50,513 bases of DNA from an uncultured Bacilli bacterium (lineage in GTDB: Bacteria; Bacillota_I; Bacilli_A; RF39; UBA660): the NCBI GenBank assembly GCA_905235065.1, contig CAJOJR010000014.1:1-50513 (forward strand). The letters are read 5' to 3'. The position numbers were made by a program, and so were the translations under genes. Below are positions 18,811-47,531 of the stretch, piece by piece (the stretch's first letter is position 1; each line of letters begins with the position of its first letter). The notes beneath the pieces are model-generated. The model saw only the letters and a list, made by a program, of their open reading frames with translations, was not told where the DNA came from and did not search any database.

Positions 18811-19227
18811 ATGGAGGAAAATAAAGAAATATATTTAGCAAGTGCATGTAAGTTATTTGATGGTTTAATTGCTAAAAAATTAGAAATGTATGATGAAAAA
18901 ATCATTGTTAGAAAAGAATCTTCAAAGGTTTATAAGGAAATAATAACTGGAATAGAATTTAGAATATATCCTAAATCAATTTTTAATGTAAATGATAAAG
19001 AAGTTTATATTATCCCTAACAAAAGAATAGATGAAACTAAAGAAGGATATGATTTAATAAGAAGATATTATGAAGAAAAAAATGAATGTAATATATTTCA
19101 TATGCTTAATTGGTTTAATATGAGTGAAGTTGATAGATATAAGGATTATATTAAAAGATTTGAAGCAAATAATTTTGATTATGAAACTATAAATAATGAA
19201 TTAGTTAGAAGAAAAATGAAGAAATAA
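18811..19227 (+). CDS. Hypothetical protein
   Basis: 138-aa ORF with GAGGG RBS; followed by a terminator. Confidence 0.75.
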   Translation: MEENKEIYLASACKLFDGLIAKKLEMYDEKIIVRKESSKVYKEIITGIEFRIYPKSIFNVNDKEVYIIPNKRIDETKEGYDLIRRYYEEKNECNIFHMLNWFNMSEVDRYKDYIKRFEANNFDYETINNELVRRKMKK

Positions 19228-19256
19228 AAAAGGAATTATAATTAATTCCTTTTTTT
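19226..19256. terminator. Bidirectional terminator
   Basis: aaaaaggaatta-taat-taattccttttt between convergent genes. Confidence 0.8.
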
Positions 19257-20547
19257 ATCCGAGAAATTCAATTGGTGGAATGTCGTTGTTCTCATTTTCA
19301 TTTTTTATCATACTGGCATCCATATTTGTTTTTAAGTTAAAATCTTTATAACTTGTTAAATCATTTTCAAGATCAATAATTTTTAATATTTCTTCAAATG
19401 AAGTGACACCTTCGATTACTTTTCCAAGACCATCTTGAAGAAGAGTAATAACATCGCCATTATAAACAAGTTTTCTAAGTTCAGTTTTAGGAAGTGAATT
19501 TACGATTGCATCTTTTATTGCTTCAGATATTCTTAATACTTCTAGTATAGCAACACGCCCTCTATAGCCATGTGAGCATTCTGGACAGCCATCTGGGTTA
19601 GGGTGTAGCATTTCATTAACCTCAACACCTAATACTTGTTTAAATACATTTTTTTCATAATCAGTAGTTGGCTTTTTTATTGCGCATTTTGGACATATTT
19701 TTCTAGCAAGTCTTTGAGAAATGATACCAGTTAAAGCACTACCAAGTAAATATCTTTCAATTTCCATATCAGTAAGTCTTTCGATAGTGTTTAAGGAGTT
19801 ATTTGTATGTATTGTAGACAAAACTAAATGACCTGTAATAGAAGCTCTAACAGCCATTCTTGCAGTTTCAGAGTCTCTTATTTCACCAATCATTATTATG
19901 TTTGGATCTTGTCTTAAAATACTTCTTAAAACGTTATCAAAAGTAAGACCTATTTCAGACATAACTTGTACTTGGTTGATACCTTTAATGTCCATTTCAA
20001 TTGGATCCTCAACTGTTATTATATTAACATTTTCAGTATTTAGTTTTTGCAAGATAGAGTAAACGGTAGTAGATTTACCGGTACCAGTAGCACCAGTAAC
20101 AAGGATAATTCCGTTTGGAACATTAATCATTTTATATATTTTATCTAAACTTCTTTGGCTAAAACCTAAAGTTTCAAGTCCTTTTAAACTTTGAGAGTAA
20201 TCAAGTATACGAACAACAACTTTTTCACCATTGTTTGTAGGAAGGGAAGACACACGAAGATCTAGTGCTTTTTCACCAATTTTATTTTTAATAGCACCAT
20301 CTTGAGGAAGACGTGTTTCCATGATGTTCATACCAGCAATCATTTTAATACGACTTATGATATTTTTTTGATACTTTTTATCAATAACGCCATAATCACT
20401 AAGTTCGCCATCTATTCTAATTCTTAAGCGTAAATTCTCTTTAGTAGGGTCAAAATGAATATCCGAAGCATTTCTGTTAACTGCATCCATAATGATTTCA
20501 TTAACAATTTCAACAATAGGCATACTTTCAAAATCAAATTGTTTCAT
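19255..20547 (-). CDS. GspE/PilB-family pilus assembly ATPase (no N-terminal N1D domain)
   Basis: ASDIHFDP, RLPQDG, GATGTGKST, EDPIE, LRQDPNIIMIGEIRD, TGHLVLSTIHTN, CPKC...CPEC; ATG 20547 after GGGAG. Confidence 0.93.
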   Translation of the reverse strand: MKQFDFESMPIVEIVNEIIMDAVNRNASDIHFDPTKENLRLRIRIDGELSDYGVIDKKYQKNIISRIKMIAGMNIMETRLPQDGAIKNKIGEKALDLRVSSLPTNNGEKVVVRILDYSQSLKGLETLGFSQRSLDKIYKMINVPNGIILVTGATGTGKSTTVYSILQKLNTENVNIITVEDPIEMDIKGINQVQVMSEIGLTFDNVLRSILRQDPNIIMIGEIRDSETARMAVRASITGHLVLSTIHTNNSLNTIERLTDMEIERYLLGSALTGIISQRLARKICPKCAIKKPTTDYEKNVFKQVLGVEVNEMLHPNPDGCPECSHGYRGRVAILEVLRISEAIKDAIVNSLPKTELRKLVYNGDVITLLQDGLGKVIEGVTSFEEILKIIDLENDLTSYKDFNLKTNMDASMIKNENENNDIPPIEFLG

Positions 20548-20657
20548 ATTCATTCTCCCTTTTATTCTAAAATTAATTATACAATATATTATTTTTATTT
20601 TCAATCACTTTTGTTTTTATATTTTATTTGATATAATTTAGTAGAAAGAAGGATGTT

Positions 20658-21116
20658 ATGAAAAAAGGATTTAGTTTAATAGAATTAATTGCAGTAATTG
20701 CTTTATTAGGAGTTTTAATAACATTAACTAGTATTTCTGTTACAAGTTTAAAAAGAAAGTCTGAAGAAAAATTATTAAATGAAAAAATAAAATATATTGA
20801 AACTGGTGCTTTAAAATGGGGAGAAGACAATTTGAATTTATTAAGTTCAAATTCTTGTTATAAGAATGATTCTAGTGAAATGCTAACTGTTCAAGTGTTA
20901 ATAGCTGGTGGATATATAACAGGAGATGATAATGACAACACTAAATTGAAAATCCCAGGAACTAACGAATATTTTAATGATAAATGTGTATGTGTTAAAT
21001 ATGAAAATATTTATTCTAATAAAAATTTAGATGATTATGCAAGTAGTTATAATTATGAAAGCAATAAATCAAATTATCAAGTAACTGCATCATACGGAGA
21101 AGGGAAGTGTGAATAA
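20658..21116 (+). CDS. Type IV pilin / pseudopilin
   Basis: Class III signal KKG|FSLIELIAVIALLGVL; 4 Cys in the head domain. Confidence 0.9.
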   Translation: MKKGFSLIELIAVIALLGVLITLTSISVTSLKRKSEEKLLNEKIKYIETGALKWGEDNLNLLSSNSCYKNDSSEMLTVQVLIAGGYITGDDNDNTKLKIPGTNEYFNDKCVCVKYENIYSNKNLDDYASSYNYESNKSNYQVTASYGEGKCE

Positions 21117-22810
21117 TGAAACTTAAAAATAGTTATTTTTATACAATAAAAGAAAATATTAAAGATGAAGATTCTATAAGTGGAAACCTACTAGTAAGAA
21201 GTGGAATGATTAAAAGAACTTCTTCTGGTGTTTATATGTTTTTGCCACTTGGATATAAAGTTTTAGATAATATTAAAAAAATAATAAGAGAAGAAATGAA
21301 TAAAAAAGGTGCTCAAGAACTTTTAATGCCTTCATTAATTCAAGAAGAAGTTTATAAAACTACCGGAAGAAGAACTAAATTTGGAAATGACATGTTTTCA
21401 TTTAAAGATAGATTTGGAAAAGATTATTGCTTAGGGCCAACACATGAAGAATTATTTACAATGGCTGCAACTTACCATGTAAAAAGTTATAAGGATTTGC
21501 ATTTTAACTTATATCAAATCGCAGATAAATTTAGAGATGAGCCAAGACCTAGATATGGTTTACTTAGAGTGAGAGAATTCTTAATGAAAGATGCATATTC
21601 TTTTGATACTGATGAACTGGGTTTAGATTTAAGTTATAAAGATATGTATGATGCTTATAAAAATATTTTCAATCGAATGAAAATAAATTATTTAGTAGTA
21701 GAATCTGATTCTGGAGCAATGGGAGGTCTTTTATCAGAAGAATTTCAAGCAATAAATCCTGCTGGTGAAGATAAACTTGTTTTTTGTACTAAATGTTCTT
21801 ATACATCAAATATAGATATTGCTTATTCAAAGGAAGATTATAAAATATCTACCGAAAAAGAAAAAAGTATTGAAAAAGTTTATACTCCTAATATGAAGAC
21901 AATTGAAGAAATATCAAATTATATGAGTGAAGACAAAAATAAATTTATTAAAAGTTTAATATATAAAGCAGATGATAAATTTTATATGGTTTTAACACTT
22001 GGAAATGATGAAGTAAATGAAACTAAATTAAAAAGAGTGTTAAAGTGTTCCTCTCTAGAATTAGCTACTGATGATGACATTGAATCTTTGGGATATGTAA
22101 AAGGATTTATTGGACCAATTGATTCTAGGATTAAGGTAATTGCGGACAAGAAAATAAAATATATTAAAAATGGAATAACTGGTGCTAATAAGAAAGATTA
22201 CCATATTAAAAATGTAAATCTTAAAGATTACAATGTAGATAGATTTGAAGATATTACATTTGTTAGCATTGGTGATAAATGTCCAATATGTGGAGAAAAG
22301 CTTTTGTTTGAAAATGGTATAGAAATAGGTAATTTATTTAAACTTGGAACTAAATATAGTGAATCATTAAATCTTAATTATTCTGATGAACACAATAAAT
22401 TAAATCCAGTATATATGGGATGTTATGGAATTGGCCTTGGAAGATGTATGGCTGCTATTGTTGAAGAGCATCATGATGATAAAGGTATTATATGGCCTAT
22501 GGAAATTGCTCCATATAAAGTCGGAATAGTTTTAATTAATTCTAAGGACGAAGAAATGCTAAAGAATGCTAATGATTTATATAATAAACTTAAATCTTTG
22601 GGTATTGATACTTTATTAGATGATAGAGATGAAAGGCCTGGTGTTAAGTTTAATGATATGGATTTAATTGGAATACCTATTAGAATAGTTATAGGTAATA
22701 AAGTAAAAGAAGGTATAGTTGAATATAAAAATAGGGATAGTAATGAAGTATTAGAATTATCTATAAAAGATGCAATTGAAAAAATAAAAGAAAATGTTTT
22801 AAGAGGTTAA
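21116..22810 (+). CDS. proS: Proline--tRNA ligase (bacterial type with INS editing domain)
   Basis: GPTHEE, FRDEPRPRYGLLRVREFLMKDAYSF, GIEIGNIF-like GIEIGNLFKLG, MGCYGIG. Confidence 0.98.
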   Translation: MKLKNSYFYTIKENIKDEDSISGNLLVRSGMIKRTSSGVYMFLPLGYKVLDNIKKIIREEMNKKGAQELLMPSLIQEEVYKTTGRRTKFGNDMFSFKDRFGKDYCLGPTHEELFTMAATYHVKSYKDLHFNLYQIADKFRDEPRPRYGLLRVREFLMKDAYSFDTDELGLDLSYKDMYDAYKNIFNRMKINYLVVESDSGAMGGLLSEEFQAINPAGEDKLVFCTKCSYTSNIDIAYSKEDYKISTEKEKSIEKVYTPNMKTIEEISNYMSEDKNKFIKSLIYKADDKFYMVLTLGNDEVNETKLKRVLKCSSLELATDDDIESLGYVKGFIGPIDSRIKVIADKKIKYIKNGITGANKKDYHIKNVNLKDYNVDRFEDITFVSIGDKCPICGEKLLFENGIEIGNLFKLGTKYSESLNLNYSDEHNKLNPVYMGCYGIGLGRCMAAIVEEHHDDKGIIWPMEIAPYKVGIVLINSKDEEMLKNANDLYNKLKSLGIDTLLDDRDERPGVKFNDMDLIGIPIRIVIGNKVKEGIVEYKNRDSNEVLELSIKDAIEKIKENVLRG

Positions 22811-22811
22811 T

Positions 22812-23096
22812 ATGAATAACGGTTTTAAAACAATAGAGGATTTATATAAAAGATTAAAACCAGCATTATATTCTAAAGTAGTTGAACTTAAAAGAAATGG
22901 TTTAGATTATATAAAAGAAGAAGATATATTTAATTATTTATTAGAATCTTCATGGTCTAAAAAAGATAATTTATCAATTGCTGAACTAACAAATGAGATA
23001 CTTTATTTAGACAATAATTTAATAACTAATTATGTGATGAATATTTTAAAAAATACAGAAAGAAATATAAATGAGGAGGATAATAATTTATTATGA
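22812..23096 (+). CDS. comN: ComN/YrzD-like post-transcriptional regulator
   Basis: LKPALYSKVVEL...I-EEDIFNYL..W...L...NEIL; directly upstream of secDF as in Bacillus. Confidence 0.7.
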   Translation: MNNGFKTIEDLYKRLKPALYSKVVELKRNGLDYIKEEDIFNYLLESSWSKKDNLSIAELTNEILYLDNNLITNYVMNILKNTERNINEEDNNLL

Positions 23097-25291
23097 AAAA
23101 ATTAACCAAATTAATAGTTTTATATGTAGTTTTATTTGGTTTAACTATTGTACTTTTTATACCAACATTAAGAAACATTAATTTTGGTTTAGATTTACAA
23201 GGGGGATTTGAAATTCTTTATAAAGTTAAACCTTTATCTGGAAAAGGAGAAGTAACTGATGAAGATCTAAACAACACATATAAAGCAATAGTAAATAGAA
23301 TTGATACATTAGGAGTTAGTGAACCAGTTATAACATTTGAGGGAGAAAATACTCTTAGAATACAACTTCCAGGTGTTCAAGATGAGAAAGAAGCTAAAGA
23401 GATAATAAGTACAATCGGATTATTATCATTTAGAGATACTTCTGATAATTTACTTATGTCATCTGATATATTAGGTTCGGGTGGTGCAACTGTAGATACA
23501 AATAGTAAGACACTAAGACCAGTAGTTAAACTTGATATAAAAGATACTGCAACTTTTTATAATGTAACTGATAGTTTATCTAAAAGTAGTGATAATCGTA
23601 TGGTTATATGGCTAGATTTTGATGAAGAAAAAGATAGCTTTAAAAACTCAGAGTCTACTTGTGGTACAGAAGAAGATAAAAAGTGTTTATCAGCTGCTTA
23701 TGTTAATGAAGGTTTAAATAGTTCTAATGTAATAATTGAAGGAAATTTTACAAAAGAAAAAGTTACAAGACTAGCAGAACTCATAAATTCTGGTAGTCTT
23801 CCTACGAAACTAGTAGAAGATTCAACTCCGCATTCAGTTTCTGCTTCTTTTGGAGCTAAAACAATAGAGAAGTGTGGTATAGCTGGTTTAATAACGTTTA
23901 GTTTAATATTTGCATTATTAATTTTTAAATATAGAGTAAGTGGTATTATAACTTCTATTTCACTTACAATATATTCACTTCTAACGTTTGCAATATTTAA
24001 TTTATTGGGAGGGGTATTAACTCTCCCTGGAATTGCTGCTTTGATACTTGGTATAGGTATGTCTGTAGACTCATCAATAATTCTCATTGAAAGAGTAAAA
24101 GATCAATATAAAAGTAATTTAAAAGAAGCTTTTGAAAAAGGGTCTAAAAGTAGCTTATCAGCTATAATAGATGCTAATGTTACAACATTAATAATAGCAG
24201 TCATTCTTTATATATTTGGTCAAAGTTCAATTAAAGGGTTTGCGACTATGTTAATTATATCTATAGTAGTAACTATTATATCTATGGTTATAATTAATAA
24301 ATTATTAATTAAGCATTTAGTTAATACTGGATATTATGATGAAAAATTCATCGCTTTATTTGGTAAAAAGAATAAGGAAACTAAAATTGATTTTGTAAAA
24401 TCTTCAAAATATTTGTTAATTACATTTATATTAATATTATTAACAGGTGTTATTTTCTATTTTGTAAAAGGAATAAACTTAGGTGTGGATTTTTCAGGTG
24501 GAACAAATATAACTCTAGTAAGTGAAAATAACTTTAATTTGCAAGAATTAACTGAATATGTTAAAGATTATGATATAGATGAATATAATTATTATGTAGG
24601 AACATCTAAAGAAGGATATATTAGATTAAATCAAATTATTCCAGAAGAAGAAAAAAATGTAATAATTGATAAATATACAGATTTAGGTATAGATGTTTCG
24701 ATAAATGAAATAAGCACAATGGTAGTAGAAAATTTAACTAAAAATGCGTTGTATAGTTTATTGATTGCTTTTGTTGCAATTATAATCTATATTGCAATTA
24801 GATTTAGTTTTACATTTGGTTTATCTGGACTTAGTGCTTTAATACATGATGTAATACTAATAATAGTTGGGTTTATAATATTGAGATTACAGTTTAATTT
24901 TATAGTTATTGCATCTCTTTTAACAATAATTGGTTATTCAATAAATGATACTATTGTTATTTTTGATAGAATAAGAGAGAATAATAAATCTATTAAAACA
25001 AAAGAGGAATTATCTAATATAGTAAATAAGAGTTTAAATGGAATATTAGTTAGAAATATAATGACATCTATAACTACAATTATTGCAGTATTAGCACTAC
25101 TAGTATTAGGTGTTAATGAAATATTTACATTTAATGTAGCTATTTTAATAGGTCTTATAGGTGGAACAGTATCATCATTGATATTTGCTCCTAATTTATG
25201 GAGAATTCTTGAAATAAGAAATTTAAAAAAACCTAAAAAAGCACCTAAGAAAGAATTAAATGAGATGTCTATAAAAGGAATTAATTCCTAA
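23093..25291 (+). CDS. secDF: Fused protein translocase subunit SecDF
   Basis: GLDLQGG, RIDTLGVSEP, LINSGSLP, IDANVTT, GVDFSGG, GYSINDTIVIFDRIRE. Confidence 0.96.
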   Translation: MKKLTKLIVLYVVLFGLTIVLFIPTLRNINFGLDLQGGFEILYKVKPLSGKGEVTDEDLNNTYKAIVNRIDTLGVSEPVITFEGENTLRIQLPGVQDEKEAKEIISTIGLLSFRDTSDNLLMSSDILGSGGATVDTNSKTLRPVVKLDIKDTATFYNVTDSLSKSSDNRMVIWLDFDEEKDSFKNSESTCGTEEDKKCLSAAYVNEGLNSSNVIIEGNFTKEKVTRLAELINSGSLPTKLVEDSTPHSVSASFGAKTIEKCGIAGLITFSLIFALLIFKYRVSGIITSISLTIYSLLTFAIFNLLGGVLTLPGIAALILGIGMSVDSSIILIERVKDQYKSNLKEAFEKGSKSSLSAIIDANVTTLIIAVILYIFGQSSIKGFATMLIISIVVTIISMVIINKLLIKHLVNTGYYDEKFIALFGKKNKETKIDFVKSSKYLLITFILILLTGVIFYFVKGINLGVDFSGGTNITLVSENNFNLQELTEYVKDYDIDEYNYYVGTSKEGYIRLNQIIPEEEKNVIIDKYTDLGIDVSINEISTMVVENLTKNALYSLLIAFVAIIIYIAIRFSFTFGLSGLSALIHDVILIIVGFIILRLQFNFIVIASLLTIIGYSINDTIVIFDRIRENNKSIKTKEELSNIVNKSLNGILVRNIMTSITTIIAVLALLVLGVNEIFTFNVAILIGLIGGTVSSLIFAPNLWRILEIRNLKKPKKAPKKELNEMSIKGINS

Positions 25292-25299
25292 GGAGTATT

Positions 25300-27429: not shown

Positions 27430-27875
27430 TGAGAGTATTAGTTCAAAGAAGTAAATATAGTGATGTAACAATTGATAATAAAGTAAATGGAAAAATAGAT
27501 CATGGTTATGTATTATTAGTTGGTTTTACTTATGGTGATAGTATTCAAACAATAGATAAAATGATAAAAAAGATATTAAATCTCAGAATTTTTGAAGATG
27601 AAAACGGTAAAATGAATAAAAGTATACTTGATGTGAAGGGTGAAATATTAAGTATAAGTCAATTTACTTTATATGCTGATTTAAAAGGCGGAAATAGGCC
27701 TTCTTTTACAGATTCACTTGCTTATGATGAAGCATCAAAATTATATGATTATTTTAATAATAAACTGAGAGAAAATAATATAAAAGTGGAAACTGGCATA
27801 TTTGGTAGTGATATGAAAGTATCAATATTAAACGATGGACCAGTTACCATTATGATTGATAGTAATAACATATAA
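27429..27875 (+). CDS. dtd: D-aminoacyl-tRNA deacylase
   Basis: MRVLVQR, SQFTL, GNRPSF, NDGPVT. Confidence 0.97.
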   Translation: MRVLVQRSKYSDVTIDNKVNGKIDHGYVLLVGFTYGDSIQTIDKMIKKILNLRIFEDENGKMNKSILDVKGEILSISQFTLYADLKGGNRPSFTDSLAYDEASKLYDYFNNKLRENNIKVETGIFGSDMKVSILNDGPVTIMIDSNNI

Positions 27876-27901: not shown

Positions 27902-27915
27902 GCATTTTATTTAAT

Positions 27916-27945: not shown

Positions 27946-27974
27946 ATATATAGTTAAGAATAGGTGATAATTAT

Positions 27975-30513: not shown

Positions 30514-30544
30514 AAATAAAGTTAGTAATAACTTTATTTTTTTT
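30514..30544 (+). terminator. Terminator after the surface protein gene
   Basis: aaataaagtta-gtaa-taactttattt plus Ts. Confidence 0.8.
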
Positions 30545-30590
30545 GAAATTAATTAATATTTATACTATAATTAAATTAAGAGGTAATACT

Positions 30591-33114
30591 ATGAAAAGAA
30601 GTAATGTTGATATTAATAAAGTTAGTCCAATGATGAAAGAATATCTTAAAACAAAAAGTGAATATGAAGATACTTTACTTTTCTATAGATTGGGTGATTT
30701 TTATGAATTATTCTTTGAAGATGCAGAAATTGCATCTCACGAACTAGAACTTACTTTAACTGGTAAAAATGCCGGTCTTGAAGAAAGAGTTCCAATGTGT
30801 GGAGTTCCTCATCATGCGGCTAATATATATATTCAAAAATTAGTCGATAAAGGATACAAGGTTGCTATTTGTGAGCAAGTGGAAGACCCTAAAACAGCTA
30901 AAGGAATAGTTAAAAGAGAAGTTATTGAAGTAGTAAGTAGAGGAACTCTTACTAATACTGAAGCTTTAAATGAACATGATTTTAATTTTATTGCAAGTAT
31001 TACAGATAATTTTATTAATTATATTTTTTCTTATGCGGATTTATTAAGTGGTAAAGTATATGCTTGTTATTTATCTCATGATAAAAATAAACTAATTAGT
31101 TATATTAATAATTTAAATATAAAAGAAGTTGTTGTAAATTCTTCATTTGATAAGGAGATATTATTTGAACTTAAAAATAATTATAATGTCTTCATATCTA
31201 TTAATGATAATACATTAGATGGAATATATAATAATATATTCGAGGGTATAAAAGATAATAAATTAATTGAAAATACTAAAGTGGTTATATCTTATTTAAT
31301 CAATAATCAAAAGAAAGAATTAAAGCATTTCCAAAGTCTAGAAATAGTTGATACTAATTTATTCATGGAATTGGGAATTGAAACAGTTAGAAATCTAGAA
31401 TTAGTTGAAACAATTAGAAGTAAAGATAGAACTAACAGTTTATTAGGATTCTTAGATAAAACAAAAACTGCGATGGGAAGTAGACTTTTAAAGAGTTACA
31501 TAATTTCACCATTGTTAAATAAAGATGAAATAATAAGAAGACAAAATATAGTCGAATTATTAATTAAAGAGTTTTTATATAAAAGTGAATTAAAAACTTA
31601 TTTATATGAAATATATGATTTAGAAAGATTAACAGGTAAAATAGTATGTAATAACGTAAATGCTAGAGATTTATTACAGCTTAAAAAGAGTTTAAGTGTT
31701 CTTCCAGATATTAATCTAATATTAAAAGAATTAAATCTAGAAGAGTTAAATACTTTTCCAGAACTTGTTACATTATTAGAAAAATCTATTAATGAAGATG
31801 CACCTCTCTTATTAAAAGAGGGTAATTTAATTAAAGATGGTTATAATAGTGAAATTGATGAATTAAGAAATATTAGAAAAAATGGCAAAGATTTTATATC
31901 TAAATTTGAAAGAGAAGAAATAGAAAGAACTGGAATATCAACTTTAAGAGTTGGATATAACAAAGTATTTGGATACTATATCGAAATAAGTAAAGGACAA
32001 GTAAAGAATATACCTGAAGATTTTAAATATGAAAGAAAACAAACAACGACAAACTCTGAAAGGTATATAAGCCCTTTATTAAAAGAAAAAGAAGATTTAA
32101 TATTAAATGCTGAAGAAAAATTAAATAATCTAGAATATGACATTTTTAATGAAATAAAAGAAGAGATAAAAAAATACATTCATGAATTGCAAGTGGTATC
32201 TTCTAAAATTGCTTTTTATGATGTTATGCAGTCATATGCGACTGTTGCAGAAGAAAATAATTTTGTAAAACCAATATTAAACGAAGAAGGAATCATTAAT
32301 GTAGTTGATGGAAGACATCCTGTTGTAGAAAATGTTATTAAAGATGAATATACACCTAATGATATTAAAATGGATGAAAAAACAAATATATTATTAATTA
32401 CTGGACCTAATATGAGTGGTAAATCGACTTATATGAGAGAACTTGCGATTATAATAATACTTAATCAAATTGGTTCTTATGTACCAGCAAAAGAAGCTAA
32501 CTTACCTATAATTGATAAAATATTTACTAGAATAGGTGCTTCTGATGATTTGGTTGGTGGAGAGTCTACATTTATGGTAGAAATGAAAGAAAGTGCAATT
32601 GCGTTAAAAAATGCTACTAATATTATTTGATGAATTAGGCCGTGGGACTTCCACATATGACGGAATGAGTTTGGCTGGTTCGATAATTGAATATATTGAG
32701 ACAAATATAAAATGTAAGACATTATTTTCAACCCATTATCATGAACTTACAAAGATGGCTGATACATTTGAAGGAATAAAAAATGTACACGTATCTATAT
32801 ATGAAGAGAATGGTAATATTAAATTCCTGCATAAAGTGAAAAATGGAGCTGTTGATAAAAGTTATGGTATAAACGTTGCTAAACTTGCAGATCTTCCTGA
32901 CAAAGTAATCGAAAGAGCTGATGAACTTTTACATAATTATGAAGGGCATCAAAAACGTAAAAAGATTATTAAACAAGTAGAATTAGAATTAATAGAAGAA
33001 AAAGAAAACCCTTTATATGATTTTATTGATAATATTAACCCTAATGAAATAACGCCTATCGAAGCATTAAATTTAATATATGAAATAAAAGGTAAAAGAG
33101 AAGATTTAAAATAG
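30591..33114 (+). CDS. mutS: DNA mismatch repair protein MutS, frameshifted at ~32615
   Basis: [46 protein letters not shown], then after the shift [13 protein letters not shown] and FSTHYHEL. Confidence 0.93.
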
Positions 33115-35383: not shown

Positions 35384-36418
35384 ATGGAAAAAAACAAGTT
35401 TTCAACTGATTATTATGATTATTATTTACCAGAAGAGTTAATAGCACAAACACCTATTAAAGAAAGAAGTCATTCAAGACTTTTAGTACTTGATAAATTA
35501 AGTGGTAATATAGAACATAAAAGATTTGATGATATAATTAATTATTTAGATTCTAATGATGTATTAGTACTTAATAATACTAAAGTTTTACCTTCTAGAA
35601 TATTTGGTAATAAAAGTGAAACAGGAGCTAAGATAGAAACTCTTTTGTTAAAAGAAATTGATAATGATATTTGGGAATGTTTAACTTCTCCTCAAAAAAG
35701 ATTAAAAAAAGGTACTATAATTAATTATAGTGATGATTTAAGTGGTGAAGTAATTGAAATACTAAAAGATGGTATAACACATATAAGATTTAATTATAGA
35801 GGTGTATTTATAGAGATTCTTGAGCGTATTGGTGCGATGCCACTTCCACCATATATACATGAGTCTTTAAAAGATAATGATAGATATCAAACTGTATATG
35901 CAAAAGTTTTAGGGAGCGCAGCAGCTCCTACTGCTGGTCTTCATTTTACTAATGATTTATTAAATAAGTTAAAGAGTATTGGTGTAGAAATCTTATATGT
36001 AACTTTACATGTTGGTCTTGGAACGTTTAGACCAGTTTCAGAAAGTGATATAAGATGTCATGATATGCATAGTGAATATTATGAAATAGATGAATATACT
36101 GCAAATAATTTAAATGAAGCTAAAAAATTACATAAAAGAATAATAAGTGTGGGTACAACTTCTTTAAGGACTCTTGAAAGTAATTATACTAAGTATAAAA
36201 AATTTAAATCAACTAATGAAGAAACAAGTATATTTATATATCCGGGATATCATTTTAAAGCAATAGATGGATTAATAACTAATTTTCATTTACCTAAAAG
36301 TACTTTAATGATGCTTGTGTGTGCTTTAGCTGGTAGAGAAAACATAACTAATGCATATAAAGAGGCAGTAGAAAATAAATATAGATTCTTCTCATTCGGA
36401 GATGCTATGTTTATTAAT
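35384..36418 (+). CDS. queA: S-adenosylmethionine:tRNA ribosyltransferase-isomerase domain; in this sequence it reads in frame into the next domain up to 36811
   Basis: LPEELIAQTP, MPLPPYI, YQTVYA..GSAAAPTAGLHFT, LHVGLGTF, TNFHLPKST, YRFFSFGDAMFI. Confidence 0.96.
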
Positions 36419-37055
36419 AATGCTAGTTTTAAAAATGAATACAAACGTATTTTAAGAGGCTATAAACATAGCAAAGAAAACTATAAAACATATGATTATT
36501 TTAAAATAGATAAAGGATCAAATAACATAATTTTATCGGCTCCTCATGCATATAAACATTTTAGAAATAATAAAATTAAAGTGAATGAAAACAATACAAG
36601 CAAAATTGTAAAGATATTAGGAATTCTTACAAATTCTCATGTTATTTATACATATAAAGATTCTAATAATGATCCTAATTATGATATGGATTCTGAATAT
36701 AAAAAAGAATTATCAAAGTATATAAAAAATAACAATATTAAATATTTAATTGAAATTCACGGACTTAATAAAGATAGTGATATTTCTTTAGAAATAGGAA
36801 GTAATAGATGAAAAATTTGTTAATTTAATAAAGAATGTGTTTAGTAAGTATTATGATGATGAGATATTAATAGATGAAAAATTTAAATCTCAAAGTAAGA
36901 GAAGGGTAACTAATTATATTAGTGAAAAAAATAATATAAATACTATTCAACTTGAAATAAACAGAAAATACAGAAATTTAAATCGTATGCCTATTAAATT
37001 TAATAAAACAATAAACGCGTTAAAAGAAATAATAAAGAAGTTGGAGGAAAAGTAA
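36402..37055 (+). CDS. N-formylglutamate amidohydrolase-like (Zn peptidase fold) protein or domain, frameshifted at ~36800-36810
   Basis: IILSAPHA, K-NE-NT, DPNYD, LIEIHG, LEIG, then (frame open from 36798) IQLEINRKYR. Confidence 0.7.
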
Positions 37056-37910: not shown

Positions 37911-39921
<2,011 letters not shown>

Positions 39922-39975
39922 TTTACAAATAAAATTATAGTATTATAATAAGACATATACTGAAAGGAATTGTTT

Positions 39976-40185
39976 ATGAGTAAAATTGAAAAAAGTTTGT
40001 TAATTGCTTTAATATCTATTGGAATTTTAGGAACTTCATTTATGATTGGTATGGGTATTAAACAGGAAATTGATAAAAATGCAGATAAATCATATAGCGA
40101 TACTTATGATAAAGATACTAAAGTTAAAACATTAGATAGAATTTTCTATCTTTTATTTTTGTTTAATGATAAAATATTGGTATGA
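39976..40185 (+). CDS. Small membrane-anchored orphan protein; the true end is probably near 40139
   Basis: N-terminal TM helix. A hairpin agataga-attt-tctatct + Ts (40134-40160) and the next gene's -10 lie inside the predicted tail. One added A gives ...KVKTLR*. Confidence 0.6.
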   Translation: MSKIEKSLLIALISIGILGTSFMIGMGIKQEIDKNADKSYSDTYDKDTKVKTLDRIFYLLFLFNDKILV

Positions 40186-40195
40186 GGAGGTATGT

Positions 40196-40666
40196 ATGAG
40201 TGATATAGAAGAACATATTAAGAATTTGTTGGATAATTATAGTGATAATAAGAAACTAATAGATGAAAGTAAAAAGAATATCAAAACTAAGTTAACAATA
40301 CTAATTCTTTCATTTATATCTATTGGGTTATTATCTCCACTATTATTTATGTATGAATTACCTATATTTCTTTTTGCTTCTTTGATAACTTTTGTAACAC
40401 CTCAATTAATAACACTTAAAATGCAAGGAAGTTATTTTAAAAATATAAAAAATATTATAAATTATAGAAAAAATATGGATAACCACTTAATTGAATTTAA
40501 AAAAGCAAAGGATATTGAAGTATCAAAAGAAGATAAAGTATCAAAGCAATTAGAAGAACAAAGAGATAAACATAATCTAAGACAAAAAGAGTTAGAAATG
40601 GCTTTTAGTGATGAGAATTATTATCCATATATAGAAAGAATCAAAAGAAGAACTCTAAAAAGATAA
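40196..40666 (+). CDS. Orphan protein with two TM helices and a coiled coil
   Basis: GAGGAGG RBS before ATG 40196; hydrophobic hairpin. Confidence 0.75.
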   Translation: MSDIEEHIKNLLDNYSDNKKLIDESKKNIKTKLTILILSFISIGLLSPLLFMYELPIFLFASLITFVTPQLITLKMQGSYFKNIKNIINYRKNMDNHLIEFKKAKDIEVSKEDKVSKQLEEQRDKHNLRQKELEMAFSDENYYPYIERIKRRTLKR

Positions 40667-40675
40667 ATAACATTT

Positions 40676-40704
40676 TTGACATTTATTTACTCTCATGATA
40701 TAAT
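40676..40704 (+). promoter_or_regulatory. Consensus sigma-A promoter
   Basis: TTGACA-N17-TATAAT with an extended -10 TG. Confidence 0.85.
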
Positions 40705-40731
40705 TAAAAACAGTTTTAAGGGGGATTTAAA

Positions 40732-41121
40732 ATGTTAAATCTAAATAAAATAAGTATTATTAATGAGTATCAGAACTTAAAAGAAAAAAAAGAGAATCTT
40801 GAGATTGAATTATATAAATTTTGTCGTTCTATAACAGGAAAGTCTGCTACATATGATGAATTAGTAAAGGAAGTACAATATAGGAAAGATATATCTACTT
40901 GTGAATACAAAATGAAGTGCTTGGAGACTGAATTTAAAGCTATAACAGCTATAAAAGCAGGTCTACTTATACTTGGACTTTCTGGAGCAATTATATTAGC
41001 TTCAATTTCTATTAAATGTAATAAGGACAATAATAAAATAACACCTTCTAGTGATATATCATCAGTTTCAACTGAAGATGAATTAGAAGATAAAAAAGTA
41101 TTAACAAAAACATTAAATTAA
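40732..41121 (+). CDS. Orphan protein with a coiled coil and one TM helix
   Basis: GGGGG RBS, own promoter and terminator (41126-41155). Confidence 0.75.
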   Translation: MLNLNKISIINEYQNLKEKKENLEIELYKFCRSITGKSATYDELVKEVQYRKDISTCEYKMKCLETEFKAITAIKAGLLILGLSGAIILASISIKCNKDNNKITPSSDISSVSTEDELEDKKVLTKTLN

Positions 41122-41218
41122 TAATAAACGTAATCATATTGACTACGTTTTTATTTTATACAGAAATATTGTTTTTTTAAATATTTATGTTATTATAAAA
41201 TATAGTAGTGGAGGTTTT

Positions 41219-42352
41219 ATGAAAGAGCAATTGGAGCAAGAAAAATTAAGATTGATGGTATTTAAGAGTGCATTAGAATTAGGTAAAAAAGTTGATGAAC
41301 ATTTACTTGAATTATATAACTATGATAAAGAAAAATATACTTTTATAGTACCTATTAAAGAAAATTTTTTTGATGATGGGCATTTAAAAGTTGAAATTAA
41401 TTCAACTGTAAGAGGAAAAGATTTATTTTTACTTACTGATGTTGGTAACTATAGTGTTGAGTATACTATGAGAGGATTTACTAATCACGCTAGTCCTAAT
41501 GATTTAATGATGCAATTAAAGGATGGTATAGGTGCAAGTAATTGTCACGCAGGTAATATTAATGTTGTTATGCCTTTATTATTTGCAGGTCGTCAACACA
41601 GAAGAAACACTAGAGAGAATTTAGCGTGTGGAGCCAATTTAAGAGAATTGGATAATCTTGCTAAGATTAAAAGCTTTATTACCTTTGATGCACACGATCA
41701 AGGGGTTGAACACGCTATACAATATATGGAATTTAATAATTTTTATGCTACCAATACAATACTTGATGATTTCATTGAAAACACTCCAAAAGACCAACTT
41801 AAAAATTTGGTTTTTGTTGCACCTGATACAGGGGCTACAGGTAGAAGAAATGTATATTTAAATTCATTTAATTCTGAATTCATTAATAGAGAAGCGGGAA
41901 GTTTTATTAAACAAAGAGATTATAATCATTTAGTTAATGGAAAATATCCAGTAATAGCACATGACTACTGTGGTAATAATGATTTAAGAGGAAAAACTGC
42001 AATAGTTACAGATGATATGATATCTAGTGGTGGAAGCATGCTTGATGTTATAGATGAATTACATAATAGAGGAATTGAACATATATATGTAATAGTTACA
42101 TTTGCGTTATTTACTCGTGGCATTAATGAATTCAAAAAATTTTATGAAAATAAAATTCTTGATGGGGTATATACGACAAATTTAACTTATATACCAGAAG
42201 ATTATAAAAAAGAAGAATGGTTACATATTTGTGATTGTTCTAGCGAACTTGCTCAAATAATTTATAATATTCATAATGATTTATCAATAAGTGGAATATT
42301 AAAAGATAAATCTAGACCTGTTAAATTACTTGAAAAAAAATTTAGAGGATAA
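41219..42352 (+). CDS. prs: Ribose-phosphate pyrophosphokinase (long variant)
   Basis: STVRGKD, MPLLFAGRQHRR, TFDAHD, VAPDTGA, DDMISSGGS. Confidence 0.9.
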   Translation: MKEQLEQEKLRLMVFKSALELGKKVDEHLLELYNYDKEKYTFIVPIKENFFDDGHLKVEINSTVRGKDLFLLTDVGNYSVEYTMRGFTNHASPNDLMMQLKDGIGASNCHAGNINVVMPLLFAGRQHRRNTRENLACGANLRELDNLAKIKSFITFDAHDQGVEHAIQYMEFNNFYATNTILDDFIENTPKDQLKNLVFVAPDTGATGRRNVYLNSFNSEFINREAGSFIKQRDYNHLVNGKYPVIAHDYCGNNDLRGKTAIVTDDMISSGGSMLDVIDELHNRGIEHIYVIVTFALFTRGINEFKKFYENKILDGVYTTNLTYIPEDYKKEEWLHICDCSSELAQIIYNIHNDLSISGILKDKSRPVKLLEKKFRG

Positions 42353-42383
42353 AAATAAGCATATAAAAGTTGCTTATTTTTTT
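42351..42383 (+). terminator. Terminator after prs
   Basis: aaaaataagca...tgcttattttt. Confidence 0.7.
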
Positions 42384-42428
42384 GTTTTATGGTATAATAT
42401 GTTGCTATAAAAAGAAGGGGGAGTATAT

Positions 42429-43088
42429 ATGAATAACGAATATATTAAAGTTGGAGAAGGAAAATATGTTGTATCAAATGAAAACGGTAAAATTGACTAT
42501 AGATTAGTCAAATCTCCAGAATTATTTAAATACGAAAATGATGTTGAAATAGTAGATAATGAAATAAAAGGATTAAAAACAGAAAGAAAAAATATAATTA
42601 AAAATTTAAAAATTAAAAATTTAAGACGTTTATGCTTATATTTACCGGTCCTTGCATTATGGAGTACTGTTTTTATCAAAGATGCTATTAATGCCTTATT
42701 TATTTCATCTTACGCTAATACTTTTGGTGAAATTTCTTCTATTATAATAAGCGTGATTTTAGTTTCGATAACTGGTGGGGTTATATCGGATACTGTTGCT
42801 TCAAATATTCAAACGCAAAATAGAAAAAAAGAGATAGATGGATCATTGTTAATTGCAAAAGATATAAAAAAAGAAGCAGAAAGACAATTAGACAATTTTA
42901 AAGCAAGAAGTATTGTAAATATAAAAGATAATACTAAAACAAATGAAATAATATCTTTAAAAGAAAGAAATAATTCAAAAAGAACTGAAATATTAAAAAG
43001 AATCACTTATTATAATGATGAATACGAATATGATGAAGAATATGAAGATAATTATGATAAAGGACATACTTTAACTAAAAAAAGATAA
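42429..43088 (+). CDS. Orphan protein with a coiled coil, two TM helices and an acidic Tyr-rich tail
   Basis: GGGGGAG RBS; TG-TATAAT upstream. Confidence 0.75.
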   Translation: MNNEYIKVGEGKYVVSNENGKIDYRLVKSPELFKYENDVEIVDNEIKGLKTERKNIIKNLKIKNLRRLCLYLPVLALWSTVFIKDAINALFISSYANTFGEISSIIISVILVSITGGVISDTVASNIQTQNRKKEIDGSLLIAKDIKKEAERQLDNFKARSIVNIKDNTKTNEIISLKERNNSKRTEILKRITYYNDEYEYDEEYEDNYDKGHTLTKKR

Positions 43089-43108
43089 AAAATGATAATG
43101 GGGTTGTT

Positions 43109-43936
43109 ATGAAAAAGAATTATTATGATGAAAAGGTGTATTTAAAAAAAGATAAAGAAGTTTATGATTTTTTTGAAGAGCGTAAAAAAGAACATAGTTT
43201 TGATTATTTAGAAGAAGCTCGTTTATATAAAGATATTTTTAAAGAATATTATAAATTTGAACAAAAAATTGTTGAACTATTAAAGAGTTTGAACTTATCT
43301 TCAACTCTTGAATATTCTATTGCTTTATCATATTTAATAAGAAAAGGATATTTATCTAAAGATTTAAACTTTGAAAAGAAATCACCTATTCCTGAGATTG
43401 AAACTAATTGTGCCATTAATATTGTAAATGGCAAAGGTGTATGCAGAAATTTTTCAGACATGCATTTTGGTGTTATGTCAAGAATGAATGAATATAGTAA
43501 AAGATTCTATTGTACAAATTCTTTTTCAATGATAAAAGCAAGAAAAAATGAAGCAAATCACGTTTTAAATTTAATAGAGTATGAAAATGTATTATATGGT
43601 ATAGATTTATGTAATAAGGCTAGATTATTTAAATTTAGTAACGAATTTATATTAAAAGAAATTTCATTTGATACTAATAAAAAATATAGATATAAGCCAT
43701 ATTTTGAGATGGTTTCAGAATATAGTGCATTTGAACAAATAGATAAAAATTTAAAGATATTTAAAGAAGATAGTAAAAAACCACATATTTCAGCAGTTCA
43801 ATATTATGAAGATATTTTACCTCAAGTTTTAGGATATTTATACTCTCAAAAAGATACTTTTATGGATTTTCATAATGAAACAAAAGAACTTAAAAATAAC
43901 ATAAGCGAAGAGATGGCAAGAAAATTAACAAAATAA
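43109..43936 (+). CDS. Putative transglutaminase-like / papain-fold Cys-His-Asp protein
   Basis: GKGVCRNFS ... ANHVLNLI ... YGID spacing typical of a transglutaminase-like triad. Confidence 0.6.
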   Translation: MKKNYYDEKVYLKKDKEVYDFFEERKKEHSFDYLEEARLYKDIFKEYYKFEQKIVELLKSLNLSSTLEYSIALSYLIRKGYLSKDLNFEKKSPIPEIETNCAINIVNGKGVCRNFSDMHFGVMSRMNEYSKRFYCTNSFSMIKARKNEANHVLNLIEYENVLYGIDLCNKARLFKFSNEFILKEISFDTNKKYRYKPYFEMVSEYSAFEQIDKNLKIFKEDSKKPHISAVQYYEDILPQVLGYLYSQKDTFMDFHNETKELKNNISEEMARKLTK

Positions 43937-43958
43937 AAGAGTAAGTTTTACTCTTTTA
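43934..43958. terminator. Bidirectional terminator
   Basis: taaaagagtaa-gtt-ttactctttta. Confidence 0.8.
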
Positions 43959-44327
43959 TTTTGCTTCTTTATTTTTATAATTTATTCCAAACATGCCACC
44001 TATAGTTGAAGATAAAAGAAGTATCAAAAAATATATTACAATATTTAATTTAGGATTTGTTCCAAGTATAAAAGCTAAAAATAAGAATAGTATTATATTA
44101 AATCCTCCAACAATAAGACCATTTATATATCCTTTTTTATTGCTTCTTAAAGCGGACATAAAACCCACCATCATAAAAAGCAATATAGTCACTATGAAAC
44201 TAATTAAAGAAACTGTTTTATAATTAACTATATTAAAATAATTAAGTGTTGTTATTATGATTAAATAAGAAAGCAACGTAATATAAAAATAAATAATAGG
44301 TTTAATATATTTCTTTATTTTTTCCAT
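43956..44327 (-). CDS. TIGR04086/YrzE-like four-TM membrane protein
   Basis: GFMS...KKGYINGLIVG...IGGMFGIN; Bacillus yrzE-yrbG-spoVB arrangement. Confidence 0.75.
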   Translation of the reverse strand: MEKIKKYIKPIIYFYITLLSYLIIITTLNYFNIVNYKTVSLISFIVTILLFMMVGFMSALRSNKKGYINGLIVGGFNIILFLFLAFILGTNPKLNIVIYFLILLLSSTIGGMFGINYKNKEAK

Positions 44328-44399
44328 AAAACCTCCATAGTTAAATTTATTCTTGTTTAAAAATTATATGACTTATCCATAATAAAATTAGGTGATATT

Positions 44400-45047
44400 A
44401 TGGATTTTTTAATTGTTATATATAGAACAGTATTCTTTTATATATTTATTATTTTTGTATTTAGATTAATGGGTAAAAGAGAAATAGGCCAGCTTAGTAT
44501 ACAAGATTTAGTTATAAGTATAATTATGTCAGAGTTAGTTGCGATGAGCATTGAAAATAGAAATGATTCTATGCTTTTAACAGTTATACCAGTTGTTATA
44601 TTGGTTATACTAGAAATGTTATTTTCGTATATATCTTTAAAATCAAATAAATTTAGAAATGTATTAGAGGGTAAACCATCATTAATAATTTCACAAGGAA
44701 AGATTAATTTTAATGAAATGGTAAAAGAAAGATATACTTTAGATGATTTGTTACTAGAACTTAGAAGTAAAGGTATAAAGAATATTGAAGATATAGAATA
44801 TGCAGTATTAGAAAGCGATGGAAGATTATCTATATTTAAATACAATTTTTTAAAATTAAAATCATCAAATCCACTTCCTTTAATACTAGATGGCATTATT
44901 CAAAAAGACACTTTAAAATATCTTAAAAAAGACGAAAAATGGGTAAGTGAAATACTAAGTAAAAAAGGAGTGGATCAAAAAAATGTATTCTATGCTTTTT
45001 ATAAGGATAATGATACTTATATAATAAAAAGAACTAATCTAATTTAA
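44400..45047 (+). CDS. DUF421 (YetF/YrbG-like) membrane protein
   Basis: RLMGKREIGQLS, EGKPSLII..G, LRSKGI, AVLESDGRLS. Confidence 0.9.
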   Translation: MDFLIVIYRTVFFYIFIIFVFRLMGKREIGQLSIQDLVISIIMSELVAMSIENRNDSMLLTVIPVVILVILEMLFSYISLKSNKFRNVLEGKPSLIISQGKINFNEMVKERYTLDDLLLELRSKGIKNIEDIEYAVLESDGRLSIFKYNFLKLKSSNPLPLILDGIIQKDTLKYLKKDEKWVSEILSKKGVDQKNVFYAFYKDNDTYIIKRTNLI

Positions 45048-46344
45048 ATAGTTTTTTTGTTTCTTTATAATAAAGTGTAGTGGATGTTATTAGATTTAAA
45101 ATGATTGATATTACTAGAGAATACATTCCAATTTTTAAAAATGAAAATATTACTAAACTGATGGTTCTAACTATTTCACCAAAAACAGTAATCTTCATAA
45201 CAGTTTTAGCTTTTCCTAAGGCTTGTAATGAATTGTTTAGAGGTATCTCTATAAAATATAGTAATATAAAAGGAGCAAGTATTTTTATATAATTTATACC
45301 TTCAGCTGTATGAAATAGAAGATTTAAAAGTTTAGCTGGAAATATGTAAACTATTAGCGTTGATATAATTCCAATGGATAATGAAGTAAATACTATTTGT
45401 TTTATTCTTTTAACACATTTTCTATAATCTTTTAATGAATAATATTTAGATAATTCAGGTATTAAAGAAGTAGACATTGATTGAGTGAAAAAACTCGGAA
45501 GTAATAAAAGTGACATAGCGTATCCATTTATAATACCATATTCATTTATAATAAATGTTTTAGAATATCCTACATATGAAAGTATATTTGTAATAATAAT
45601 TGGTTCAAAGAAATAAAATAAAGAGCCAATTATTTTACTTGATGTTGATGGTATACTAATATTCATAACATCATTAATACTTTCTTTATCTATTTTGATA
45701 TCTTCTTTTTTAATTTTAATGCCCTTAGGTAAAAACAAAAGCATTACGATTATTGAAGATGTTTCACTTATAACATTTACGAGTATAATTATAGATATAG
45801 TTAGAGTTAAACTTATATTTATTAGTTTGGGTACAAATATTACAAGTAGTATTATTCTAACTATTTGTTCAACTATATTTGAAAGTATATATGGTCCCAT
45901 ATTCTGATGTCCCCAATAATATGATTTTATTATTGAAGAAAGTCCAATAAAAGGTAAAGTTAACCCTATACATATTATTGGATAATAAAGACTAGGTTCT
46001 TTTAATAAATATTTAGATAGAATAGGCGCAACTAGTATTATTAAAACTATTAATCCAATATTGATTAAGGTTGCAACGGGTATTATAGAAAACATTATTT
46101 TCCTTGTGCTTCTATTCTTTTTAGCAATTAAAGAACTTATTGCAGTAGGATATGAAAATATTGCTAAAGTATTAAATATTGCCATTGAAGGACCTAATAA
46201 ACTATATATACCTATGCCAGTTGTTCCTATTTGTCTAGTTATTATTATTCTTAGAATAAAACCTAAAAATTTTGATAAAAAACCTCCAAACAATAAAATT
46301 ATGGTAGATTTTAAAAATTTATTATTTGATATTTTATTAATCAT
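45034..46344 (-). CDS. SpoVB-like MOP-family flippase / polysaccharide export protein
   Basis: LSKFLGF..RI..TR.IG..GIG.Y, SNIVEQIVR, LIPELS, LQALGK. Confidence 0.8.
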   Translation of the reverse strand: MINKISNNKFLKSTIILLFGGFLSKFLGFILRIIITRQIGTTGIGIYSLLGPSMAIFNTLAIFSYPTAISSLIAKKNRSTRKIMFSIIPVATLINIGLIVLIILVAPILSKYLLKEPSLYYPIICIGLTLPFIGLSSIIKSYYWGHQNMGPYILSNIVEQIVRIILLVIFVPKLINISLTLTISIIILVNVISETSSIIVMLLFLPKGIKIKKEDIKIDKESINDVMNISIPSTSSKIIGSLFYFFEPIIITNILSYVGYSKTFIINEYGIINGYAMSLLLLPSFFTQSMSTSLIPELSKYYSLKDYRKCVKRIKQIVFTSLSIGIISTLIVYIFPAKLLNLLFHTAEGINYIKILAPFILLYFIEIPLNNSLQALGKAKTVMKITVFGEIVRTISLVIFSFLKIGMYSLVISIILNLITSTTLYYKETKKLFKLD

Positions 46345-46433
46345 ATTTAAATATATGATTATTTTTTAATTTTATAATATTGAATATAATTAATTATTGT
46401 GATATTATAAACGTTAAAAGAAAAGGAGATTTT

Positions 46434-46862
46434 ATGAGAGATTATAGTGTTAAAATACCAAATATAGAGTATGAGGAAGATTTAAATAATTTAAAAAATA
46501 ACTTTTATAAAGTATTTGTAATTGATGAATGCTTTGAAAGATTATTACATAAAACTTCTGATGGGCAACTTCAATATATATTGGATGTTGAAACTTGTTA
46601 TCATACGCCATATCAACACAAAAAAGTTACTAAAAATATCAAACCCGAAGAATTATTTGATGTAATTGAAAAAGAATACCAAAAAGTTTTAAGTCCAACT
46701 AAAATAAAACGTGATTATAAAACATATTTAGCTTTTGAGAAAGACGAATTAAGAAGATTAGAGAGAAATTATTATAAGTATTTTGAAAATCATGAAGAAG
46801 ATGAAGAAGAAGTTGCTGAAGGTTTAGAAAGAGTATATAGTCTAGTAAGAAAAAACAAGTAA
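46434..46862 (+). CDS. Orphan protein with an acidic C-terminus
   Basis: AAGGAG RBS before ATG 46434; terminator 46850-46881. Confidence 0.7.
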   Translation: MRDYSVKIPNIEYEEDLNNLKNNFYKVFVIDECFERLLHKTSDGQLQYILDVETCYHTPYQHKKVTKNIKPEELFDVIEKEYQKVLSPTKIKRDYKTYLAFEKDELRRLERNYYKYFENHEEDEEEVAEGLERVYSLVRKNK

Positions 46863-46879
46863 TAGTTTCACTTGTTTTT

Positions 46880-47531
46880 TTATAACTTTCTTATTAAAGT
46901 TTTTGATCTTTCATATTTTTTTCTTCTAGATTATCATTTTGAAGATTCATGTTATTTGTCTTAACTGTTAGTTCTTTTTCTTGTTTATATAACTCTTCTT
47001 GTAATTTTTTTGTTCATCAATTTTTTGTTTTATCTCATTATAATTTTTACAATCTTTTGTTTCTTTTAAAAGACTAAAGGATCGCCATAATATTTTGTAC
47101 CATCTTCCATTAATTTATTTAAATGTTCTTCAATTAAATTAACTTGTGTAAATTTTGATAAATCTTCTGCAGAACCAGTGGCTTTTAAAATATTATAATC
47201 TTTATTTACTTTTTCGTACCATATCTTTCCGGTACTGTTATATACTTCTAAAGTTGATGTAGTAGGAGCGGTTAATTTCAAATCTCTATCAATATCTATT
47301 CTAATCGCTCTAAATACTGAAGGTTTTTTACTATATTCTTTTTTTTCTTCATCAGTCATTTCTTTCAAAACATCCAGGATACTCAAATCTGTTAAAATAT
47401 GTTCTCTTGAATTATTATATTCAATCATATTTTTAAACGTTTCTAGAACATTTAAAGTTGAGTACCAATAACCAATACTCAAAAGAAGAAATTATAACTA
47501 TAATAAATAAAATGATCAAGAATAATATCAT
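46880..47531 (-). pseudogene. Orphan TM-anchored coiled-coil gene broken by several homopolymer indels (core ORF 47066-47482)
   Basis: MILFLIILFIIVIIS from ATG 47531 is out of frame with SIGYWYST. After GDPLVF, successive shifted frames read LKETKDCKNYNEIKQKIDEQ / LQEELYKQEKEL...NLEEK / YERSKTLIRKL*. Confidence 0.55.

Follow-up and report, generated by a model that had tools for sequence, protein, structure and literature searches.

The window, a 50,513-nucleotide contig of an uncultured Bacilli bacterium (GCA_905235065.1, contig CAJOJR010000014.1), encodes several unrelated orphan proteins that end in short basic tails. We found that a degenerate C-terminal motif, [KR]-x-L-x-[KR], is real and non-random on non-core proteins without a signal peptide in this lineage, and that it is narrower than the acidic-then-basic tag of the original prediction. 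Because the tail is shared by a minority of the non-core proteins and the core genes of a type IV secretion system (T4SS) are present in nearly all searched genomes of the family, we lean towards the tail being a putative export signal of T4SS effectors, read by VirD4, which would imply a contact-dependent lifestyle.

C-terminal motif on non-core proteins

The window is contig C14 of genome G000 (878 kb, 26% GC, 91.7% complete). G000 and its relatives, with genomes of 0.6–1.6 Mb, fall in one large family that accounts for 119 of the 120 sampled genomes of the order and that we infer to be RF39/UBA660. Tails were scanned in four genera of this family (G000, G021, G022 and G011), with G031 as the outgroup; G025, a single genome of a sister family sampled over 50 kb, stood outside the tail counts. 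The calling of open reading frames (ORFs) covered G000 completely, G021 and G022 almost completely (820/834 kb and 917/992 kb) and G011 and G031 in part (520 kb of ~1.3 Mb and 460 kb of ~1.0 Mb); ORFs crossing 20-kb borders were lost. "Core" proteins had at least 40% identity across 60% of their length in two other genomes, "orphans" had no hit, and "non-core" comprises orphans and proteins with weak hits only. "Soluble" excludes proteins with an N- or C-terminal hydrophobic segment or with more than three such segments. The counts exclude proteins shorter than 80 amino acids (aa) and proteins with a single strong hit. The tail was defined as the last 12 residues, and expected counts came from shuffles within the tail, which keep its composition.

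Among non-core soluble proteins pooled from the four genera, [KR]-x-L-x-[KR] occurred in 66 of 776 tails vs 30.2 by shuffles, whereas core C-termini showed no excess (26 of 888 vs about 24). In an unbiased listing of 18,325 three-residue patterns, K.L.K took second place in the three training genera (42/533 vs 20.3) and again in G000 (24/243 vs 9.8); it was the sole replicating pattern among the 25 best training patterns. Leu was required at the centre, since neither Ile (33 vs 30.7) nor Val (15 vs 14.8) was enriched, and Phe, Tyr or Met at this position were enriched more weakly (49 vs 28.2). The motif was also specific in its spacing: four other spacings were not clearly enriched, with K..LK, for example, at 28 vs 30.4 and KL..K at 33 vs 30.3. 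Leu was located at positions −3 to −5 in 34 of the 66 carriers.

A refined motif, [KR]-[S/T/V/I/K]-L-[S/T/V/I/K/R]-[KR], sharpened the signal. When the flanking letters were picked on three genomes and scored on the fourth, the counts were 7/243 (1.6 expected), 6/153 (1.0), 6/230 (1.0) and 5/150 (0.9), which were reached by 0–2 of 1000 shuffles; core proteins gave 0/248, 3/245, 0/255 and 1/140. The refined motif was confined to the last 12 residues (34/776 vs 6.5, with 2–4 at offsets of at least 12), and it recurred in 81 independent loci flanking VirD4 genes (6/328 vs 1.6). The motif excess corresponds to ~14 proteins in G000, or roughly 5% of its non-core soluble proteins, and about half of the loose-motif matches are background. 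The Nsig class carried the motif in 16 of 496 proteins vs 11.2, and expectation-maximization motif discovery collapsed to composition.

According to the original prediction, the motif would fall if composition sufficed to explain it or if core proteins carried it equally often. When all ORFs of G000 were counted together, matches to the loose motif did not exceed shuffles (35 of 897; mean 26.6, maximum 42), whereas orphans and core proteins did differ (18/281 vs 4/290, p = 0.002). The three held-out genera showed the same difference when pooled (31/595 vs 19/766, p = 0.009), and in none of them taken singly was it significant. The C-terminal motif on non-core, signal-peptide-less proteins held in the orphan/core comparison with a shuffled background and in the leave-one-genome-out tests. 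The acidic-then-basic arrangement set the Pfam-less proteins of the window apart (4 of 8, against 2 of the 35 others) but was not upheld across genomes, where an acid block was present in 5 of 66 carriers and acidic and basic parts occurred together in 36 proteins vs 33.6 expected; we rejected the acid block as a part of the signal.

Type IV secretion genes of the family

VirB4 was found in 30 of the 31 genomes searched. VirD4 was present in 115 of 119 family genomes, the hit in one of these being weak and probably not an orthologue; outside the family, 2 of 74 genomes had it. Neither protein was found in G025. A search for co-occurring secretion ATPases, as originally proposed, thus returned VirB4 and VirD4 as near-universal in the family and EssC in three genomes. 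The VirD4 loci came mostly from animal and human gut collections.

The locus is chromosomal. Besides the VirB4- and VirD4-like genes, it contains a gene for a pilin-like protein, membrane-protein genes resembling VirB6 and VirB3, and a wall hydrolase of the CHAP/glucosaminidase or SpoIID type; VirB6, VirB3 and the short pilin were named by position and hydropathy and not by Pfam hits. Together these match the gene content expected of a dedicated T4SS locus of the Patescibacteria type. In G011, virD4 lies ~40 kb away from the T4SS locus. In G000, VirB4, the VirB3-like gene and a part of the VirB6-like gene are on the 8-kb contig C22, and the T4SS part sits on two contig ends (C22, C19). Tad genes (CpaB, CpaF-type ATPase, TadB/C-like, Flp-like) are joined to the T4SS genes in L033 (G021), L078–L079 (G022) and L145 (G011).

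Relaxases were rarely detected. The MOBP relaxase PF03432 was above the cut-off in 1 of 31 genomes, and four further families gave one hit in total across five genomes: PF03389 (0/5), PF02486 (0/5), PF01076 (1/5) and PF13814 (0/5, with the control silent too); MOBF, MOBH and MOBM were outside this search. The VirD4 proteins carry a long variable linker followed by a conserved acidic-aromatic end of the (I/V)TDDEFFDDFF type in 76 of 80 cases (L147–L227, L264). Such an end was also present in G037, which belongs to another family, and absent in the VirD4 of G030.

The analogy with type IV secretion drawn in the original prediction thus stands as far as a candidate machine with VirB4 and VirD4 exists in the family, outside the window, and is not supported for the acidic block or for the PilB-type ATPase and pilin at 19255–21116, which had been suggested as the machine. 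That ATPase also occurs in G025, where searches for VirB4 and VirD4 gave no hit, and nothing ties it to the tails.

The Cys-His-Asp family and other tagged candidates

The protein encoded at 43109 had been described as a Cys-His-Asp enzyme, and the triad was borne out by near-invariant C112, H151 and D166 in its family. Its structure model (pLDDT, the predicted local distance difference test, 97.7) had weak best fold matches to NAT3 (4dmo) and TglA (9crn), with a best Foldseek E of 3e-3 and a template-modelling (TM) score of 0.34, and its Atlas neighbours carry PF01841. With its triad on a papain-like core, the protein belongs to the transglutaminase-like Cys-His-Asp superfamily; it shares the triad and the fold with the transglutaminase-like/arylamine N-acetyltransferase members, but differs from them by having no Pfam hit and a weak Foldseek match. 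This family alone comprises 1,606 unnamed clusters at 50% identity. We found it in 7 of 24 genomes of the bacterial family and in 0 of 16 others, where present as a singleton whose site varies; in L278, the Cys-His-Asp gene is the sole occupant of the slot between tgt and the DUF3792 gene. Among the best 150 members, of which 6 C-terminally cut ones were dropped, the strict motif occurred in 22 of 144 vs 10.0 by shuffles, and the last 8 residues had a net charge of +2.0 on average. We also observed three tandem genes of this family in G005 (L005, L257) and, in G003, a Fic protein ending in NVKKLTK (L004:475-1287) that adjoins a member gene.

Of 69 non-core proteins with basic tails, picked by hand, about half lacked a Pfam hit. 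Among the others, part of which are likely background, we found sigma-70, mTERF, Fic, phosphoesterase, HAD, acyltransferase and AAA domains. Basic tails were seen on divergent sigma-70 proteins, a ClpX-like AAA protein and a DUF4116/RNA-polymerase-alpha-CTD (C-terminal domain) protein (L091:8286-9830, L089:18918-19994, L243, L238); if these are cargo, they would indicate a bacterial target. Proteins with mTERF repeats were present in 3 of 41 family genomes (G021 C2:122-126 kb; G022 C3; G007 C53) and in 0 of 14 control genomes. The three G021 genes are in tandem, and one of them ends in KTLKR.

Proposed export and alternative explanations

If the tail is an export signal, VirD4 would capture the basic end either directly, with its all-alpha domain or acidic tail, or through an adaptor bound to this tail. 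The ATPases would then unfold the cargo and push it through the channel after pilus contact, and membrane-inserting hairpin proteins, together with enzymes such as the Cys-His-Asp protein, would act in the target cell; such effectors may supply what a genome below 1.5 Mb cannot make. That the target is another bacterium rather than an animal is suggested by the pili, the wall hydrolase and the sigma-like candidates, and is a weaker claim than export itself. Positively charged C-termini read by VirD4 are a known signal of type IVA secretion systems (T4ASSs) (PMC12981334). A more far-reaching version, which we regard as tentative and rather doubtful, is that this abundant gut family consists of contact-dependent parasites of other cells, in which a core, relaxase-free T4SS, Tad-joined in several genera, injects fast-turnover KxLxK-tailed effectors caught by the DDEFFDDFF end of VirD4. 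If true, a Patescibacteria-like lifestyle would have evolved inside Bacilli, and the resistance of the family to pure culture would be explained. The family-wide machine and the short tag offer a way to list candidate effectors, and a lead for culture would be to look for the host cell.

Several observations weigh against export by this machine. The link between machine and tail rests on co-occurrence in one clade. VirD4 gave no hit in G000; this is likely an assembly gap, since the congener G001 has a VirD4 that is 49% identical to that of G021. Many coupling proteins have an acidic C-terminal domain, and such tails recruit partners (PMC7434980). The loose motif was weak in the VirD4-flank loci (12/328 vs 8.8). 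The outgroup G031, which has no VirD4 hit, showed the motif in 10 of 179 tails vs 6.3 at the end and in 11 vs 3.9 six residues inward; its tail rate did not differ from that of the family (p = 0.22), and its refined-motif count was 2 vs 0.8. Internal windows of core proteins reached an observed/expected ratio of up to ~1.6 for K.L.K, with one refined-motif outlier of 8 vs 2.6 at offset 36. Among all 150 non-core soluble proteins of G011, the tail rates of Pfam-less (9/83; 3.9 by shuffles) and Pfam-bearing (4/67; 2.5) proteins did not differ significantly (p = 0.39). In the 43109 family, only 15% of the members carry the strict motif, close homologues have variable ends, and the motif occurred in 1 of 27 neighbours of member genes in metagenome loci, which is no enrichment. 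Moreover, the 43109 tail is modelled within the helix 259–274 at high confidence, and not as a loose peptide.

The predicted helix would also suit a different role, in which the tail forms a short, basic and amphipathic helix able to bind an anionic membrane or nucleic acid in the producer cell, or a plain helix end, with no transporter involved. The mild enrichment of the K..L..K spacing in core internal windows, the near-terminal enrichment in G031 and the sigma-70, glycosyltransferase and AMP-binding proteins among the motif matches agree with such a helix. We consider it unlikely, as core C-termini have no excess, the refined motif is gone 12 residues inward, and neither other helical spacings nor Ile and Val are enriched. 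Still less probable is a degradation tag for ClpXP, Lon or a tail-specific protease, which would keep recently acquired, potentially harmful proteins short-lived. Basic C-terminal ClpX degrons exist, and G011 encodes an S41 tail protease, but many carriers have membrane segments or resemble cargo enzymes. A degron like that of transfer-messenger RNA (tmRNA) was rejected: the tmRNA tag of G000 is GKNNNFAPAFA and those of its relatives end in AFA, unlike the tails.

Export by another machine, such as type VII secretion (EssC, WXG100), the Tad pilus or the PilB-type ATPase of the window, appears to us improbable to much the same degree. EssC is encoded in G021 (C3), G022 (C6) and G011 (L134–L135), WXG100 genes were confirmed in G011, and the Tad genes adjoin the T4SS genes as described above. 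However, no EssC was detected in G000, the genome with the clearest tail signal, and the Tad ATPase was not found in either genome of its genus. The tail is missing from the WXG100 proteins, and no tail carrier had a WXG100 Pfam hit; the signal known for type VII secretion is YxxxD/E. An artefact of composition or of the DNA, arising from AT-rich codons, overlap with signals of the next gene or multiple testing, is very unlikely and by now largely refuted. It would fit the all-ORF count of G000 within the shuffle range, the background share of the loose matches and the fact that Lys is the last residue of 30% of all proteins, but the composition-keeping shuffles were exceeded and the motif was replicated on held-out genomes. 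An origin from a promoter −35 box was rejected, as none of the 66 tails had TTGAC and their Leu codons were the ordinary ones; gene overlap was rejected too, with the next gene overlapped in 10 of 60 carriers vs 129 of 628.

Comparison with known systems

The putative signal resembles that of VirB/VirD4 T4ASS effectors of Agrobacterium, Bartonella and Helicobacter in its short degenerate basic C-terminus, its unrelated signal-peptide-less cargo and the presence of VirD4 coupling proteins in the lineage (PMC12981334). It differs in being Lys-rich and Leu-centred and in belonging to a monoderm, and no BID or XVIPCD-like domain was seen; export is putative here. E-blocks and an FxxxLxxxK motif have also been described for C-terminal signals (PMC12981334); in the Legionella Dot/Icm signals, the E-block is accompanied by a hydrophobic residue at the end, and FxxxLxxxK is bound by LvgA. 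With the Legionella Dot/Icm signals, the tails share a hydrophobic residue near the end, a coupling protein with a long C-terminal extension and, in some window proteins, an upstream acid block. The acid block is not general here, however, and the machine belongs with those of Gram-positive conjugation.

The T4SS of Patescibacteria (Saccharibacteria) is likewise chromosomal and near-universal in small-genome monoderms, with VirB1/3/4/6/D4-like proteins, VirB2-like pilins and a mostly absent relaxase (PMC12102498; PMC12857230). That system belongs to a different phylum, whereas ours is Tad-joined in several genera. The excerpts of these two papers that describe it name no substrate signal. Dedicated protein-translocating T4SSs are almost unknown in Gram-positives, one Streptococcus suis case and Patescibacteria being named (PMC12857230). 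The T4SS of the S. suis 89K island is Gram-positive, as here, and was reported to export SspA-1 (PMC12857230); it lies on a pathogenicity island and has one named substrate, unlike the family-core system and dispersed candidate repertoire described here.

RF39 was compared through PMC7301438, PMC13155120 and the first half of PMC12306168. These uncultured, auxotrophic bacteria are widely distributed in the guts of animals and humans, and their dependence on the animal or on other bacteria was called open (PMC13155120). In the excerpts at hand, "secretion" appears once in PMC7301438, about wall precursors, and not in PMC13155120. Our literature search on secretion, T4SSs or parasitism in RF39/UBA660, which left most subscription journals and supplements outside its scope, returned no paper on this system.

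Tails and neighbouring genes in the window

The features of the window are listed in Table 1. All six C-termini quoted in the original prediction for intact ORFs were present in the sequence as given, and none of the six proteins had a Pfam hit or began a hydrophobic segment in the first 25 residues, in keeping with the claim that most of them lack signal peptides. The proposed consensus, K/R/H-x-L-x-K/R, applied to the ends at 40666 (RRTLKR), 41121 (KKVLTK), 43088 (HTLTK) and 43936 (RKLTK), but not to those at 19227, with Met at the centre, and 46862 (YSLVRK), where the first basic residue is absent. Two more tails had been obtained by single-base repair, and neither survived: the ORF at 39970–40185 natively ends elsewhere, and the gene at 46880 is broken in several places, with three native frames. 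Since stop codons precede its RSKTLIRKL, this end is not on any protein as encoded. The stretch 46851–47800 is repeated without differences in contigs of run X1, a possible source of this DNA, in a read comparison that covered 45900–47800.

Of the 8 Pfam-less proteins of at least 80 aa in the window, 4 had the motif, compared with 4 of the 35 remaining proteins (p = 0.03 in a post hoc test). For the orphan at 42429, no homologue was present among 349 candidates, and all Atlas matches were sub-threshold.

Table 1. Tail-bearing ORFs and associated features of the window.
Feature	Position	Strand	Description
Pfam-less orphan, 138 aa	18811..19227	+	Basic tail RRKMKK; Leu motif absent, compatible with the weaker [KR]-x-[FYM]-x-[KR] variant only
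Minus-strand T2SSE-family ATPase and plus-strand N-methyl pilin	19255..21116		Candidate machine of the original prediction
Variable segment between tgt and DUF3792 gene	39922..43955		Contains four motif-bearing orphans
71-aa ORF	39970..40185	+	N-terminal hydrophobic segment; native end RIFYLLFLFNDKILV without motif; overlaps next ORF
Pfam-less orphan, 166 aa by longest ORF	40166..40666	+	Two internal hydrophobic segments; tail IERIKRRTLKR, motif match
Pfam-less orphan, 129 aa	40732..41121	+	Single internal hydrophobic segment; tail EDELEDKKVLTKTLN has an acid block and matches the motif
PRPP-synthetase-family gene in variable segment	41219..42352	+	End matches loose regular expression, possibly by chance
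Pfam-less orphan, 219 aa	42429..43088	+	Internal hydrophobic segment; tail DEEYEDNYDKGHTLTKKR, match only if His is allowed
Transglutaminase/NAT-fold Cys112-His151-Asp166 enzyme	43109..43936	+	Tail RKLTK closes long C-terminal helix (model)
Pfam-less orphan, 160 aa	46380..46862	+	Acid block, basic end YSLVRKNK; strict motif not matched
Gene broken in several frames	46880..47558	-	Motif-like RSKTLIRKL at far end, behind stop codons

Outside these features, the sporulation genes CotJB, YqfD and CotZ are kept in the small genome G011 (L134, L129, L136). A queA gene with a C-terminal extension forms two ORFs at 35384–37055 of the window and one 564-aa ORF at the same place in L278, where the amidoligase-like, RimK and tgt genes come next as they do here. 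Three other window genes also look split into two ORFs each: the peptidase-C39 ABC transporter at 1131–3175, and the SMC-like (12163–15098) and mutS-like (30543–33114) genes, the latter two named by eye.

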